This document shows positions 17,974 to 50,342 of a DNA stretch of 64,000 nt, one piece after another (position 1 is the first letter of the stretch; the number at the start of each line of letters is the position of its first letter). The notes beneath the pieces were generated by a model, which worked only from the letters and a program-made list of their open reading frames with translations, searched no databases and had not been told where the DNA came from. The stretch is taken from NCBI GenBank assembly GCA_041671565.1, contig JBAZBH010000003.1, forward strand, positions 572 to 64,571. Reading direction: 5' to 3'. The DNA is from Patescibacteria group bacterium (GTDB taxonomy: Bacteria; Patescibacteriota; Patescibacteriia; JACRDY01). A program made the translations under genes and the position numbers.

Positions 17974-18149
17974 GACAAGAAGTTAAGATATCGTAATGAC
18001 CCCGTCGCGGCGGGGTCATTTAGTTTAATTAGATAGGCTTATTTAGCCATGAATGAGCGAGATTTAGTAGAACGATGTGTAGGGGCAATTCACGAATTGC
18101 CCCAAACAAATCATCTTAATTCTACTAATATGTTTTTTCATCGCCTGCG

Positions 18150-18410
18150 GCGGGCTTGTCACTTTTGTGACCAAAAGTAACCAAAAGTCCCGGGGTGGCA
18201 AAAAGCCCGAGCTCGTGGCTTCTACCTACTTCTCGCTCCGCCTCACCTCGCAGTCGCTATCTTTGGTTCTATTCCTAGATATATCGCTTTGCGGCAACAT
18301 ATACCTACTTGATACTCGGGCAGGTCGGCTCGTCTCGGGGCTTTGCCACCCCGGACCCCGATTCTGGTTGGCTTATGTCTTTGTAGCGGTTCTGTCTAGT
18401 AGTTATGGGA
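18150..18410 (+). ncRNA. candidate structured non-coding element, copy 1 of 2; the ORF called across it is probably spurious
   Basis: Shares conserved ends with 33265-33560: 5' ttttgtgaccaaaagtaaccaaaagtcccgg..ggggtggcaaaaagcccg, 3' cggggctttgccaccccggaccccgattctggttgg; long-range complementarity between the ends. Confidence 0.35.
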
Positions 18411-18555
18411 TCTTAAAAACTTATAACTTGTTGTCGGGTTGAAATTAAATCGGAAATCAGCTAGAATAGGGGGTGCCGATTAAAATCGGAATTTTTGTGT
18501 ATTTAAGGGGTTTTTGGAAGGTTGAGGGTTAGTTTAAAAAAATAATGCTGTCTAG

Positions 18556-18638
18556 CGCAGGGAGACCACATAGTGGTCGAGTGCGCTCGCTTGGCCACCG
18601 CCTCCGGCGGGGTCCCGCCGCAGGCGGGAAAAGCGAGA
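18556..18638 (+). repeat. partial tRNA-Ser-like copy with a 34-nt GC-rich insertion (direct repeat of 19033-19115)
   Basis: gcagggagaccacatagtggtcgagtgcgctcgcttgg[ccaccgcc..gcaggcggg]aaagcgag; lacks the T-arm and acceptor 3' strand. Confidence 0.6.
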
Positions 18639-18679
18639 CGATATCATGACATTTTAAAAAATAAGGAATGAGTCCAAAG

Positions 18680-18766
18680 CGGAGAGATCGCATAGTGGTC
18701 TAGTGCGCTCGCTTGGAAAGCGAGTGTGGGGAAACCCACCGGGGGTTCGAATCCCCCCCTCTCCGC
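18680..18766 (+). tRNA. tRNA-Ser (anticodon GGA), long variable arm
   Basis: Cloverleaf by eye: anticodon loop cTTGGAAa, variable arm GTGTGGGGAAACCCACC, T-loop GGTTCGAATCC. Confidence 0.7.
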
Positions 18767-18791
18767 TGTGGACTTATTAAGATGTGTGTTT

Positions 18792-19049
18792 ATGTACACA
18801 GTTTATATAATTGAAAGTTTGTCGAACGGTAGGCATTATATCGGCGTTACTTCTGATCTGGCTCAGCGTTTACGGCACCATAACAGTGGCGCCAACAGGT
18901 CAACTAAGAACAGGGGACCATGGAAAATAGTTTATTCTGAAGTTTTTCCCGATCAAAAAACGGCTTGGTTAAGAGAACGGCAAATTAAGAAATATAAAGG
19001 TGGCGAGGCGTTTAAAAAACTTTTGATAAAAAGCAGGGAGACCACATAG
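18792..19049 (+). CDS. small GIY-YIG nuclease family protein (YhbQ / COG2827-like)
   Basis: YTVYIIES..GRHYIGVT..L..RL..HN...WKIVYSE.F....A..RERQIKK; about 85 aa; stop codon lies inside the downstream tRNA-like repeat. Confidence 0.7.
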   Translation: MYTVYIIESLSNGRHYIGVTSDLAQRLRHHNSGANRSTKNRGPWKIVYSEVFPDQKTAWLRERQIKKYKGGEAFKKLLIKSRETT

Positions 19050-19153
19050 TGGTCGAGTGCGCTCGCTTGGCCACCGCCTCCGGCGGGGTCCCGCCGCAGG
19101 CGGGAAAAGCGAGTATATCGAAAGGTATCGGGGGTTCGAATCCCCCCTCTCTC
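19033..19153 (+). pseudogene. tRNA-Ser-like copy carrying a 34-nt insertion in the anticodon loop and an altered variable arm
   Basis: Complete cloverleaf-length copy ...gcttgg[34 nt]aaagcgag tatatcgaaaggtatc gggggttcgaatcccccctctctccgcc; direct repeat of 18556-18638. Confidence 0.45.
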
Positions 19154-19187
19154 CGCCATGGACTTATTGGGATTTAAAATAGCGACG

Positions 19188-21040: not shown

Positions 21041-22858
21041 ATGTTAACTCCCGTTGAAGAAATCAAATCCCGCCTCGACATCGTTGACCTACTCCAGGAA
21101 TACATCAAGGTCGCGCAGGCCGGCGCCAATTGGAAAGCGCGGTGCCCTTTTCATAATGAAAAAACGCCGTCGTTTATGATTTCGCGGGAAAAGCAAATTT
21201 GGCATTGTTTTGGTTGTGGCGAGGGCGGTGACATTTTTACTTTTGTGCAGAAAATAGAGGGCTTGGATTTTCCCGAAGCTCTGCGGCTCCTGGCTGACAA
21301 GGCCGGCGTGGTGGTGCAAAAGCAAGATCCCCAGATGTTGAGCCAGCGGGCGCGGCTGATTGATCTTAATGAACTGGCCGCCAAATACTATCAGCGGGTG
21401 CTTCATGATTCGTCGGTTGCCAAAGCCGCGCGGGATTATCTGGCGGGCCGCGGCGTGGACCAGCTGACGATCGATAACTGGCAACTGGGTTACGCGCCGG
21501 ACAGCTGGGACGAGACCGCTAATTTCCTCAAGAAAAAAGGCTACGGCGAGCAAGAAATTTTCCTCGCCGGTTTAACTGTTAAAAAAGACCCCGCCTCTTC
21601 AGGCGGGGCGAGCCGCGGCAGTGGTTTTTATGACCGTTTTCGCGGCCGACTGTCGTTTCCGATCCGCGACCAGCATGGTCAAGTGGTGGGATTCTCCGCT
21701 CGCTGCCTGGAGGCGGACGCCAAAACCGCTAAATATATCAATTCGCCACAGACCGCGATTTTTAACAAAGGCCAAATACTTTTTGGCCTGGACCGCGCCA
21801 AGCAGGAAATTCGTATAGCCAAGATGGCCGTTTTAGTTGAAGGCAATCTGGATGTGATCACTTCCCACCAGTATGGCGTCAAAAATGTGGTCGCCAGTTG
21901 CGGCACGGCGATGACCATTGACCAGGTAAAACTCCTTAAGCGTTACTCGGATAATTTGGCGCTTTGTTTTGACCCGGATGCGGCCGGCCGGCTCGCGGCG
22001 GACCGGGGGATTGAGGTGGCGCTTTCGGCCGGGATGAATGTTAAAGTGATTAAACTGCCGGCGGGCGAAGATCCTGATAAGTTTATTAAAAATCATTCGG
22101 CCGCGGTTTGGCAAGAAAAAATTAAAGCAGCGCGGCCGGTGATGGAGTATTATTTTTCGGAACAGCTGGACAACGCCGATCTCCGCGACCCGCAGGTCAA
22201 AAAAGCGGCCGCCCAGAAACTCCTGCCGGCGATTGCCCGGCTGACCGACTCGGTGGAGCAAACCCATTGGCTGCAAAAATTAGCCGAAAGCCTCTCGGTG
22301 CCGGAGAACATCTTGCGGGAAACGATCATCAAGCTCTTTAAAAAACCGGGCGCGCGCGAAGCGGAAAAGCCGGCTTTGCACGCTTCTTTAAACCGGCCGG
22401 CGGCGGAAAGCGAGCGGTTTTTGGCGATTTTATTTAAATATCCGGAAAATCTGCCTTACGCCATCGAGCAACTCTTGCCGGAAATGCTTTGGGGCGAGAA
22501 AGTGGTCAGGCTTTACACAGATTTGATTATTTATTATAATAGGGCCAAAGCCAATTGGCAGTCTGACAACCGCCTGTGGTGGCAGGATTTCAGCGCCACA
22601 CTGGACAAAGAACTGATCGATTACGCTAACCAGCTGGCTTTATTGATTGAACAGGAAGAAGACGAACTACCGGCTGACAAGGTCAAAGAAGAAATTATTA
22701 CTATCGTGAGAGACTTGAAGAAAGATTATTACACCTCTCAACTAAGAAAAATAGGCACAGAACTCAAACAAGCGGAAAGCGCCGGGCAGGCTGAGGCAGT
22801 GAAAGCCTTGGCGGGAAAATTTTCCCAAGTGGCCGGCCAGCTTTATAATTTGGGTTAA
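21041..22858 (+). CDS. dnaG: DNA primase DnaG
   Basis: CPFHNEKTPSF...CFGCG zinc-binding domain; TOPRIM region (EGNLDV, DPDAAG). Confidence 0.85.
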   Translation: MLTPVEEIKSRLDIVDLLQEYIKVAQAGANWKARCPFHNEKTPSFMISREKQIWHCFGCGEGGDIFTFVQKIEGLDFPEALRLLADKAGVVVQKQDPQMLSQRARLIDLNELAAKYYQRVLHDSSVAKAARDYLAGRGVDQLTIDNWQLGYAPDSWDETANFLKKKGYGEQEIFLAGLTVKKDPASSGGASRGSGFYDRFRGRLSFPIRDQHGQVVGFSARCLEADAKTAKYINSPQTAIFNKGQILFGLDRAKQEIRIAKMAVLVEGNLDVITSHQYGVKNVVASCGTAMTIDQVKLLKRYSDNLALCFDPDAAGRLAADRGIEVALSAGMNVKVIKLPAGEDPDKFIKNHSAAVWQEKIKAARPVMEYYFSEQLDNADLRDPQVKKAAAQKLLPAIARLTDSVEQTHWLQKLAESLSVPENILRETIIKLFKKPGAREAEKPALHASLNRPAAESERFLAILFKYPENLPYAIEQLLPEMLWGEKVVRLYTDLIIYYNRAKANWQSDNRLWWQDFSATLDKELIDYANQLALLIEQEEDELPADKVKEEIITIVRDLKKDYYTSQLRKIGTELKQAESAGQAEAVKALAGKFSQVAGQLYNLG

Positions 22859-24345: not shown

Positions 24346-24428
24346 CAAGGATTGAAAGTAGCGGAGTGACACAGCCTCTGGCTGTGTTATAGTAAAGGCA
24401 GTAATTTTCTAAAAATAATTTTGAGTAT

Positions 24429-24500
24429 TCGGGGGTAGCTCAGTGGTAGAGCAGGTGGCTGTTAACCACCTTGTCGCAGGTTCGATCCCTGTCCCCCGAG
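24429..24500 (+). tRNA. tRNA-Asn (anticodon GTT)
   Basis: Cloverleaf by eye: acceptor TCGGGGG/CCCCCGA, D-arm GCTCAGTGGTAGAGC, anticodon loop CTGTTAA, T-loop GGTTCGATCC. Confidence 0.7.
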
Positions 24501-24524
24501 TTCTCAGAATTATTTTTTTTGCTC

Positions 24525-24600
24525 AGTGGTAGAGTCCGCCGCGGCGGATTAACCACCTTGTCGTCCGCCGATTCGGCGGATCCCCCGAGTTCTATCGCGG
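24525..24600 (+). repeat. degenerate tRNA-Asn fragment in which arms are replaced by tccgccgcggcgga and tccgccgattcggcgga hairpins
   Basis: gctcagtggtagag[tccgccgcggcgga]ttaaccaccttgtcg[tccgccgattcggcgga]tcccccgag aligned to the intact tRNA upstream. Confidence 0.6.
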
Positions 24601-33144: not shown

Positions 33145-33264
33145 GATTAAGGAAATTAAATAGCGGAGTAACGGGGCATCTGCCCCGTTGTGCTTTTCGG
33201 AATGACACAGCCTCTGGCTGTGTTTTTTAGTTTGGTAGGATAAATTTTCTTTAGCCCTCGCCGG

Positions 33265-33560
33265 GCAGGCGTTACTTTTGTGACCAAAAGTAACCAAAAG
33301 TCCCGGCCTGCCCGCAATGCTTCGCATAGCAAAGCAGGCGGGGGTGGCAAAAAGCCCGATCTTCGTGGCACCTTTCTACTGCTCGCCCCGCTTCATCCCG
33401 CCAGTCGCGACTGGCGGGACGAGCCTCGCAGTCGCTACCTTTGGTTCTATTACCCCTATATATCGCTTTGCGGCAACATATATTTACTAGTTAGCCGAAA
33501 GGGTCGGTTCGTCTCGGGGCTTTGCCACCCCGGACCCCGATTCTGGTTGGTTTTGTACTT
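33265..33560 (+). ncRNA. candidate structured non-coding element, copy 2 of 2
   Basis: See 18150-18410; differs by internal insertions while the 5' and 3' conserved blocks are near-identical. Confidence 0.35.
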
Positions 33561-33770
33561 TTGAAGGAAAGACACTGTAGAGGAGTGCTCTAATAAAAGT
33601 CACCTTACAGCCTAACCGGCTGTTTTTTTGTTAGCTTTAGCCTAATTTAATTGTGGATAAATCCGAGTGGTTGCTTTTTATAGTTTGGTGGTGTATAATG
33701 GTATGTAGTGGAGGAATGTGGATAAAGGTGGGGAGAACTTAGACAAAGGGGGATAATAAAAATAAGGCTT

Positions 33771-49412: not shown

Positions 49413-49488
49413 GCCGTCGTAGCTCAGTTGGTAGAGCAATTCCATGGTAAGGAATAGGTCCGCGGTTCAATTCCGCGCGACGGCTCCA
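49413..49488 (+). tRNA. tRNA-Thr (anticodon GGT), CCA encoded
   Basis: Acceptor GCCGTCG/CGACGGC, D-arm GCTCAGTTGGTAGAGC, anticodon loop ATGGTAA, T-arm CGCGGTTCAATTCCGCG, CCA at the 3' end. Confidence 0.75.
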
Positions 49489-49527
49489 GTTTTAATAACT
49501 GGTATTAGCAGTTGCAGTAAATAACTT

Positions 49528-49785
49528 ATGTATAATGTTTATATCTTAAAATTAGCCAATGCCGATTTGTATGTTGGGTCAACCGGTAACATTAAAAATA
49601 GAATAAAACAACATCAGGCGGGGCAGAGCCAATATACTAAGAAATGTTTGCCGGTTAAGTTAATATACTTCGAATGTTATTGTAGTAAGAAAGACGCTTT
49701 AATTAGAGAAAAGTTTTTAAAAAGCGGCAGAGGCAGGGAAGTAATCAAAAAACAATTAGAAAACACCCTTAAGGTCAAAAGATAA
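49528..49785 (+). CDS. small GIY-YIG nuclease family protein (YhbQ/COG2827-like), second copy
   Basis: MYNVYILKLANADLYVGSTGN..NR..QH; same family and length as 18792-19049; embedded between tRNAs. Confidence 0.65.
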   Translation: MYNVYILKLANADLYVGSTGNIKNRIKQHQAGQSQYTKKCLPVKLIYFECYCSKKDALIREKFLKSGRGREVIKKQLENTLKVKR

Positions 49786-49884
49786 TTTGAGGTAGTGCCA
49801 GTTTGTCAACTGGGGCTGATCCGCCGAATCGGCGGACTGGCTTTGCCTTCGGGGCCGACGAATGATATTTTAATAGTTATATAA

Positions 49885-49966
49885 GGGTCGGTACCAAAGC
49901 GGTCAACTGGGGCTGACTGTAAATCAGCTGGCTTTGCCTTCGGGGGTTCGAATCCCTCCCGGCCCA
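49885..49966 (+). tRNA. tRNA-Tyr (anticodon GTA), long variable arm
   Basis: Acceptor GGGTCGG/CCGGCCC, anticodon loop CTGTAAA, variable arm TGGCTTTGCCTTCG, T-loop GGTTCGAATCC. Confidence 0.7.
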
Positions 49967-50342
49967 TATCAGAGAGAACGAATTAGTTAGTTCGTTCTTT
50001 TTGATTTATAACTGGGGCTGATCCGCCGAATCGGCGGACTGGCTTTGCCTTCGGGGGTTCGAATCCCTCCCGGCCCATATCAGAGAGAACGAATTAGTTA
50101 GTTCGTTCTTTTTGATTTATAACTGGGGCTGATCCGCCGAATCGGCGGACTGGCTTTGCCTTCGGGGGTTCGAATCCCTCCCGGCCCATATCAGAGAGAA
50201 CGAATTAGTTAGTTCGTTCTTTTTGATTTATAACTGGGGCTGATCCGCCGAATCGGCGGACTGGCTTTGCCTTCGGGGGTTCGGACCTGTCCGCCGTAGC
50301 ATCCGCCAGCAGGCGGAGCGGTGGCGGATCCCTCCCGGCCCA
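49967..50342 (+). repeat. three tandem ~111-nt units: terminator-like hairpin plus a tRNA-Tyr 3' fragment with the anticodon arm replaced by tccgccgaatcggcgga; the last unit has a 44-nt T-loop insertion
   Basis: Units at 49967-50077, 50078-50188 and 50189-50342; a partial unit also at 49806-49856 upstream of tRNA-Tyr. Confidence 0.8.

Follow-up and report, generated by a model that had tools for sequence, protein, structure and literature searches.

The stretch of DNA analysed here (hereafter the window; 64,000 nucleotides of contig JBAZBH010000003.1, assembly GCA_041671565.1) derives from a Patescibacteria group bacterium and contains a compact cassette, in which the gene for a small GIY-YIG nuclease lies next to an intact tRNA-Ser(GGA) gene and among two tRNA-Ser copies that are interrupted by a GC-rich insert (Table 1). 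The gene content of the window is bacterial (DnaG, a sigma-70 factor, a NAD-dependent ligase and GatA), and the nuclease carries an annotation in a Patescibacteria metagenome-assembled genome (MAG). The parts follow one another in the order truncated pseudo-tRNA with hairpins, intact tRNA-Ser(GGA), nuclease, full-length pseudo-tRNA with hairpins. A sequence-only reading that preceded this analysis had recognized the intact tRNA between the repeats, the nuclease gene with its stop codon inside the downstream repeat, and a full-length tRNA-like downstream copy with an insertion in its anticodon loop and a different variable arm, all of which hold up. The direct repeats of that reading are real and exact, but at 83 nt they had been drawn one base too wide at each end: a repeat search of the window returns 81 nt at 100% identity. 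The repeat unit measures 476 bp, and the stop codon of the 85-aa open reading frame (ORF) is a TAG (19047-19049). The GC-rich insertion is likewise present, but it measures 35 nt instead of 34 nt, since the interrupted copies read TTGG, 34 nt and AAAA where the intact anticodon loop reads TTGGAAA, which places the insertion between positions 35 and 36. The 34-nt core has two exact occurrences in the window against none expected from shuffles.

The two pseudo-copies are identical over 81 nt, yet across their 5' parts they share 82% identity with the intact tRNA. In the first copy tRNA homology stops past 18637, that is 8 nt after the insert. The downstream copy, with the module at 35/36, possesses a whole tRNA-Ser-like 3' half, whose variable arm (TATATCGAAAGGTATC) is unlike that of the intact tRNA and typical of the lineage and whose 3' end is TCTCTCCGCCA; this copy has a C at position 8 and an imperfect acceptor stem. 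The 3' end and trailer of the intact tRNA recur behind this copy, so the duplication reaches past the tRNA itself. A second assembly of the same organism (L001) shows 100% identity across 6.5 kb, and therefore the cassette is not an assembly artefact of this record. The intact tRNA-Ser(GGA) is presumably a functional gene, and a predicted promoter-like site upstream is a possible driver of co-transcription of the whole cassette.

Table 1. Coordinates of the features of the two nuclease cassettes in the window
Feature	Position	Strand	Evidence or description
Promoter-like site, TTGAAA-17-TAGAAT, upstream of whole cassette	18439..18467	+	Consensus match only, 10/12 positions
Repeat copy 1, truncated tRNA-Ser pseudo-copy	18557..18637	+	Repeat search, alignment; tRNA 5' half to anticodon position 35 (18557-18594), hairpin module, 8 nt of anticodon loop/stem AAAGCGAG (18630-18637)
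Hairpin module, copy 1	18595..18629	+	Pairing kept via compensatory changes in 33 related modules
Hairpin 1, copy 1	18595-18612	+	CC[A]CCGCC-TCC-GGCGGGG, 7 pairs, bulged A
Hairpin 2, copy 1	18613-18629	+	TCCCGCC-GCA-GGCGGGA, 7 pairs
Intact tRNA-Ser(GGA)	18681..18766	+	ARAGORN; Rfam tRNA 52.9 bits
Intact tRNA 3' end and trailer	18753..18783	+	84% duplicate at 19143-19173, after pseudo-copy; repeat search (direct and inverted repeats)
Single-domain 85-aa GIY-YIG nuclease gene (Ssn-like / UPF0213-like)	18792..19049	+	Pfam PF01541, E=1.7e-18
Repeat copy 2, 5' part of downstream pseudo-tRNA	19033..19113	+	100% to copy 1 over 81 nt
Full-length but defective tRNA-Ser-like copy	19036..19158	+	Below tRNA threshold
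Hairpin module, copy 2	19071..19105	+	Hairpin 1 19071-19088, hairpin 2 19089-19105
tRNA-Thr(GGU)	49413-49488		Second cassette (49413-50340)
Second, divergent 85-aa GIY-YIG gene	49528-49785		
Pseudo-tRNA-Tyr	about 49790-49870		Anticodon loop replaced by TCCGCCGAATCGGCGGA
Intact tRNA-Tyr	49885-49966		
3-4 tandem 111-nt copies, tRNA-Tyr 3' part and terminator	after tRNA-Tyr, within 49413-50340		Each with TCCGCCGAATCGGCGGA hairpin

The interrupted copies are judged to be pseudogenes and their GC-rich insert not to be an intron. Truncation is the rule among copies with the insert, and the insert itself shows neither a group I core nor a bulge-helix-bulge (BHB) motif. BHB introns of tRNAs belong to archaeal or eukaryal hosts, and the group I ribozyme core of bacterial tRNA introns takes at least ~200 nt. 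Of the two properties that the sequence-only reading had considered for the insert, folding and splicing, the first is borne out: the insert folds into GC hairpins, the region adopting a three-way arrangement with two hairpins and no BHB, and an Rfam search of the insert at E values up to 10 gave no relevant RNA family and no group I intron match. A scan with the tRNA model recovers the intact copy, whereas neither interrupted copy rises above threshold, the downstream one giving only a sub-threshold tRNA-Sec match of 19 bits; the 'tRNA-Ala(GGC)' that ARAGORN calls on an interrupted copy in intron mode is implausible and taken as spurious. Among the syntenic relatives the interrupted copy is incomplete in different ways: that of L003 lacks the 3' half, that of L004 the 3' acceptor strand and that of L002 the 5' part. 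An archaeal split or BHB-intron tRNA, suggested by TTTAAAAAA boxes upstream of each copy, was rejected as the genome is bacterial and no BHB is present; one of these boxes consists of codons of a conserved peptide, AFKKL.

A reading in which splicing removes a small, novel intron from the interrupted copies, so that these serve as working tRNA genes and the repeats are ordinary tRNA duplicates, is very improbable. The insert does occupy position 35/36 of the anticodon loop, the reported site of group I introns in tRNA genes of the same phylum (PMC13011429), and the downstream copy in the window is of full length. However, the insert is only 35 nt long, matches no ribozyme family, and lies in pseudogenes; in most genomes the interrupted copy is without its 3' half or 5' part, and at other loci the same hairpin lies within, or replaces, the D arm or the T arm. 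Furthermore, even the full-length window copy has C8 and a defective acceptor stem, and an intact tRNA-Ser(GGA) is present at every locus where the contig permits.

Comparison among related loci indicates that the 35-nt insert is a double GC-rich hairpin module specific to the nuclease family. Across 33 aligned modules hairpin 1 follows the pattern Y-C-[A]-CCGC-N, a loop of 3-4 nt and N-GCGG-G-R, with 231 of 231 cells paired and the bulged A invariant. The loop-closing pair is CG (27 modules), UA (4), AU (1) or GC (1), the terminal pair CG (26) or UA (7), and the covariation score of the alignment was reached by no shuffle; hairpin 2 shows compensatory TA and AT variants. The bulged A argues for folding as a single strand over a symmetric double-stranded site. 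Given this invariant base, a double-stranded palindrome bound by a dimer is unlikely for hairpin 1, with a perfectly palindromic second hairpin type (see below) as a possible case. A single long hairpin, the minimum-free-energy fold of the window copy, was also set aside, as cross-locus comparison favours two separate hairpins. The module is found at 35/36 in the Ser(GGA) loci, in the D loop in another clade and at both sites in some loci. In the D-loop type hairpin 2 is the reverse complement of hairpin 1, and in Bacteroidota the D arm is replaced by a single hairpin.

The linkage of nuclease, hairpin and tRNA was surveyed at 83 loci, namely 80 species-level loci encoding relatives of the nuclease and 3 loci from an exact-protein look-up. 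A GC-rich hairpin of one sequence family adjoins all but one of the nuclease genes (82/83). Hairpin density is 9.2/kb in the 150 nt upstream of the gene and 2.9/kb in the 150 nt downstream, against 0.05-0.3/kb farther off, which amounts to a 30-100-fold enrichment within 150 nt of the gene relative to 0.5-3 kb away; in the window cassette hairpins lie on both sides of the gene. A tRNA gene on the same strand is found within 130 nt at 75 loci, against a background tRNA density of 0.064/kb, and five of the remaining eight loci end at a contig edge. The linked tRNA is Ser(GGA) in 42 loci, with Ser(CGA/UGA/GCU), Tyr, Glu, Cys and Gly at others and Pro in Bacteroidota, and a hairpin-interrupted partial copy of the same tRNA occurs at almost every locus.

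Two part orders recur among these loci. Most Patescibacteria have the hairpin-bearing pseudo-copy first, followed by the nuclease and the tRNA (order A), whereas in the Bacteroidota tRNA-Pro loci, the window, L002, L073 and L080 the tRNA comes first, followed by the nuclease and the pseudo-copy (order B). The full pattern of the window (truncated pseudo-copy, tRNA, nuclease, full pseudo-copy) recurs in L063, L068, L071 and L078, and the cassette architecture is conserved across phyla. At L013, L033, L048 and L056 the contigs end inside or just past a repeated hairpin pseudo-tRNA copy; cassettes of this kind may break short-read assemblies and be under-represented in MAGs. No account of the tRNA arrangement came up in literature searches that combined GIY-YIG proteins with tRNA, pseudogenes, Patescibacteria or YhbQ. 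Embedding in tRNA pseudo-copies, near-constant tRNA adjacency and the spread over Patescibacteria and Bacteroidota thus appear undescribed in the literature searched.

The strand relationship invites an explanation at the RNA level, in which the pseudo-tRNA and hairpins form a structured leader or trailer of the nuclease mRNA, serving stability, RNase P processing or autoregulation by the protein, and the tRNA linkage reflects co-transcription from the tRNA promoter. Nuclease and tRNA share a strand in all 75 loci with a tRNA within 130 nt, none of the 83 loci has a tRNA on the opposite strand only, and the gap between nuclease gene and tRNA is usually 0-30 nt. Many ORFs end within the 5' end of the tRNA, with the C-terminus 'GEVA*', bulged A residues are frequent in protein-binding RNA hairpins, and with z-scores between -3.4 and -4.0 the RNA folds stably. 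Nevertheless, we consider this explanation improbable: the comparable nuclease SsnA binds no RNA (PMC11893778), the same hairpin types occur away from nuclease genes (in a pseudo-tRNA-Asn and in the second copy of an intergenic repeat, both described below), and the duplications, the arrays and the perfect 81-nt repeat are left unaccounted for. As a separate observation, the nuclease ORFs of numerous loci, L005, L008, L009 and L011 among them, extend into the tRNA gene that follows, where a TAG in the D arm serves as their stop codon (C-terminus GEVA* or GRVA*). After RNase P cleavage such an mRNA would be stop-less, and nuclease expression could be coupled to tRNA processing.

The nuclease matches the Pfam GIY-YIG family, with a borderline, overlapping match to T5orf172, which we take to be another GIY-YIG-type nuclease family, and has no further domain match. 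In the AF2 model (pLDDT 88) it adopts the catalytic core fold plus one helix, and it is thereby predicted to be a stand-alone catalytic domain without a separate DNA-binding domain. The closest solved structures by sequence are UPF0213 protein BH0048 (E 9e-11), EF2693 and then SLX1, with I-TevI at E 0.005; by fold they are 1zg2, then SLX1 (TM ~0.63) and then I-TevI (TM 0.5). UPF0213 (YhbQ-YazA) proteins, of the same minimal size, and the SLX1 domain are thus the best matches in both respects, but SLX1 requires SLX4 and acts on branched DNA, and we know of no tRNA or hairpin context for UPF0213 proteins. The protein is judged not to be a classical homing endonuclease, because it consists of the catalytic domain only and groups with UPF0213, SLX1 and the Ssn nucleases rather than with I-TevI. 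SegB, a GIY-YIG enzyme of phages T4 and T6, is a much larger protein and has a DNA-binding domain.

The catalytic residues Y5, Y16, R26 and E62 are invariant among 33 family sequences. Among syntenic orthologues the ratio of nonsynonymous to synonymous substitutions (dN/dS) is 0.04-0.09 with dS >1.3 (saturated), which indicates strong purifying selection, and the low ratio together with the saturated synonymous sites means that the gene is old and functional. The catalytic motif RE[KR]Q[IL]KK is common to the family and SsnA. Over 79 aa, the nuclease of the tRNA-Ser cassette has 41% identity with the orthologue of ssnA in Neisseria gonorrhoeae (pairwise E 1e-13; hhalign probability 97.9%). This orthologue was found by tblastn (E 2e-5) in a 7.3-Gb library, on a chromosome filed among plasmids; at least 10 copies of the NTS repeat lie around it, and its residues fit the published Y6, Y17 and E64. 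In its record (L133; NZ_CP119142.1, 1880216-1883446) the ATG is one base off the conserved frame, so that it may be a pseudogene or use another start. The plasmid collection contains two complete chromosomes of N. gonorrhoeae that are entered there as plasmids. A phage origin of the nuclease was also considered and rejected, as no relatives were found among the 2.9 million viral contigs of IMG/VR and the distant phage homologues found by tblastn do not lie beside tRNAs.

The window holds a second cassette of this kind, which is linked to tRNA-Thr(GGU) and tRNA-Tyr (Table 1); the last of its tandem tRNA-Tyr copies also has T-arm hairpins. The divergent second nuclease and its relatives are accompanied by another hairpin type, TCCGCCGAWTCGGCGGA, which lies in pseudo-tRNAs for Tyr, Gly and Trp as well as in a tRNA-like copy of unassigned identity, and therefore nuclease subfamily and hairpin type go together. 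In one relative of the second nuclease (L131, 757-2065) the gene lies beside a tRNA-Gly and a hairpin pseudo-copy, with a large serine recombinase gene on the opposite strand as neighbour.

This pairing of nuclease and hairpin appears to match the kind described in 2025 for the Ssn family (Chenal et al. 2025, PMC11893778). Ssn enzymes are single-domain GIY-YIG nucleases of ~94 aa whose own genes are flanked by hairpin repeats (NTS/SRM); they bind these repeats, cut single-stranded DNA a few nt upstream of the hairpin, are inactive on double-stranded DNA or RNA, and can also cleave at a hairpin assembled from two DNA strands (PMC11893778). As in the cassettes studied here, a GIY-YIG protein of ~90 aa (SsnA in N. 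meningitidis) is encoded between its own repeats, with hairpins of 20-50 nt, and nuclease subfamily and hairpin type go together. The two systems differ in that the module here is a double hairpin with a bulged A, outside the SRM pattern and in direct instead of inverted orientation. In addition, the hairpins here lie inside tRNA pseudo-copies, and a tRNA directly adjoins the gene, whereas the description of Ssn does not mention tRNA (PMC11893778) and the Neisseria locus has none.

Presence and absence of the cassette was followed at its syntenic site, where the upstream neighbour is a thioredoxin-like gene. The empty site that the sequence-only reading had called for exists: in L089, L090, L091 and L105 the neighbour gene is followed by just one ordinary tRNA-Ser(GGA), without nuclease, pseudo-copy or hairpin, although these relatives are distant (~55% identity of the neighbour gene). 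The cassette has therefore been gained or lost. At one and the same syntenic site, furthermore, the window and L002 have order B and their sisters L003 and L004 order A. Although the nuclease orthologues have diverged to saturation at synonymous sites, the pseudo-copy of several genomes matches the adjacent tRNA at 97-100% identity across its 5' half; in other genomes the pseudo-copy is a mosaic from a different tRNA-Ser type with the anticodon stem alone in common. The 3' part of the pseudo-copy of L002, and partly that of the window, is nearer to the empty-site tRNA of L091 than the intact neighbour of the same genome is. Tandem arrays consist of ~360-nt units of nuclease and pseudo-tRNA-Pro in L059 and L082 and of the 111-nt pseudo-tRNA-Tyr units in the window. 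Taken together, such patterns suggest that the tRNA copies continue to recombine and to undergo gene conversion.

The earlier suggestion of an integrative element with duplicated tRNA attachment sites does fit the direct repeats of tRNA sequence that flank the segment, yet it is contradicted by the gene content and extremely improbable. The ~400 bp between the repeats of the 476-bp unit hold just a tRNA and an 85-aa nuclease and no integrase, the repeat spans the 5' half of the tRNA and not its 3' end, and the same architecture is a conserved cassette across phyla.

The other suggestion, a homing-type selfish element that targets a tRNA, fares better: filled and empty sites, switches of part order and the sites at Ser, Tyr, Pro, Glu, Cys and Gly tRNAs agree with it, but the protein is not of the classical homing kind. 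In part, then, the evidence supports a nuclease element that behaves selfishly or semi-selfishly and is associated with a tRNA gene. In its strict form the homing explanation holds that a free-standing, SegB-like enzyme cuts the double-stranded intact tRNA-Ser of cassette-free genomes, that repair proceeds from the cassette copy via tRNA homology, and that the hairpin is a scar or blocker of the target in the leftover copy. SegB offers a precedent, as this phage T4/T6 enzyme, encoded among tRNA genes, is reported to recognize a double-stranded site of 27 bp (PMC2330249), and experiments show that its cleavage inside tRNA genes brings about homing as well as amplification, dependent on homologous recombination, of units made up of tRNA and nuclease (PMC2330249, PMC13096335). 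The segmental amplification resembles the arrays seen here, the hairpin has an exact, fixed place in the tRNA (35/36 or D loop) whereas the point at which the pseudo-copy ends is variable, and the mosaic pairs of pseudo-copy and tRNA, with 3' parts nearer to an empty-site tRNA, fit co-conversion.

However, SegB is phage-borne and associated with neither hairpin repeats nor hairpin-disrupted pseudo-tRNAs, whereas the nuclease here has no relatives among the viral contigs, comprises the catalytic core only in its 85 aa, without a DNA-binding domain, and is nearer to UPF0213, SLX1 and Ssn than to I-TevI. Moreover, the intact tRNA beside the gene would stay a target, a mere scar would not be expected to be conserved, covarying and subfamily-specific, and a pure homing gene would not usually stay under purifying selection for so long at one syntenic site. 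Classical homing is therefore regarded as unlikely, although with an appreciable share of the probability.

The explanation that we consider probable is an Ssn-like nuclease with cognate hairpins embedded in tRNA pseudo-copies, with nuclease-triggered recombination behind the duplications and the perfect repeats. It builds on direct observations, namely the anatomy of the cassette, the nuclease-hairpin-tRNA linkage, the compensatory pairing, presence and absence, purifying selection and homology to SsnA. By analogy the locus would work like an Ssn enzyme with its hairpin repeats; single-strand specificity, the position of the cut and the part of recombination in generating the repeats are inferred. 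As SsnA does, the nuclease would attach to the hairpin when this folds on single-stranded DNA, and would cut a few nt upstream of it, which here falls within tRNA-derived sequence. The break would then be repaired by recombination with the other tRNA copy, with gene conversion (yielding the perfect 81-nt repeat), partial or tandem duplications and switches of part order as outcomes. The tRNA sequence would provide conserved homology for entry of the cassette into a tRNA locus, or its loss from it. GC skew is positive along nearly the whole window; should this, as is usual, identify the plus strand with the leading-strand sequence, then that strand, which carries all the hairpins, would be the lagging-strand template.

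Several points weigh against this explanation. The Neisseria ssnA locus and the phage-borne relatives that were examined have no adjacent tRNA, and the published SRM search sequence HGTCWY..RNCYNB has no match in the window or the 83 loci, while the NTS used as positive control does match. The modules of the window are direct, whereas in Neisseria the nearest upstream copy fits the minus strand and the copy just downstream the plus strand. The family HMM scores SsnA (45.2 bits) and UPF0213 BH0048 (45.1 bits) equally, so that the profile favours a placement with Ssn (cd10448) no more than one with UPF0213 (cd10456). A SegB-like enzyme that cuts double-stranded tRNA genes would account for much of what is seen, and the explanation does not extend to the way in which hairpins first came into tRNA loops.

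A further step would be to regard the cassettes as a distinct class of element, in which Ssn-like nucleases travel with hairpins that insert into, or replace, tRNA loops and arms and the tRNA serves as a portable homology or targeting segment, driving tRNA duplication, replacement and concerted evolution in Patescibacteria and Bacteroidota. Insertion would here take place when the strand of the tRNA gene folds as single-stranded DNA. We put this forward tentatively, as possible though doubtful. REP/REPIN sequences and their RAYT enzymes offer a parallel, as the nuclease gene is flanked by cognate imperfect palindromes that are also present elsewhere in the genome, and as their inverted hairpin doublets resemble the D-loop-type module, in which a hairpin is followed by its reverse complement. 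However, RAYTs are HUH/Y1 enzymes, whereas the associated protein here is of the GIY-YIG type, and REPs are, to our knowledge, not typically reported inside tRNA copies.

The association gives a clue to the function of small stand-alone GIY-YIG genes, which are very common in candidate-phyla-radiation bacteria and Bacteroidota and annotated just as 'GIY-YIG nuclease family protein', by tying them to tRNA genes and a hairpin repeat. It provides a concrete substrate candidate for an enzyme class whose sole characterized members are the Ssn nucleases, described in 2025, and may yield new sequence specificities for single-stranded-DNA tools. The pattern also accounts for a class of odd pseudo-tRNAs, may account for some contig breaks and suggests how tRNA genes could be duplicated and evolve in concert where genomes are very small.

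Hairpins of the form CCGCC-N3-12-GGCGG number 22 in the whole window against 1.6 expected, and about half of them lie in pseudo-tRNAs. The others include terminator-like hairpins at minus-strand genes (2660, 3152), long intergenic palindromes (5834, 36847) and one in the dnaG frame (21589-21608). A pseudo-tRNA-Asn (24502-24600) directly follows tRNA-Asn(GUU) (24428-24501); one TCCGCC...GGCGGA hairpin stands in place of its anticodon-arm region and another in place of its T arm, and there is no nuclease gene beside it. Finally, an intergenic repeat of ~240-310 nt, for which a family was sought in Rfam and none matched, occurs at 18120-18400, just upstream of the tRNA-Ser cassette, and at 33240-33580, with 81% mean column identity in a gapped alignment and 86% over the best-aligned 139 nt. 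The second copy has two extra insertions, both GC-rich hairpins, one of which is of the nuclease-associated type TCCCGCC...GGCGGGA (TCCCGCCAGTCGCGACTGGCGGGA, 33396-33419), and this difference between the copies is a hint of hairpin mobility.

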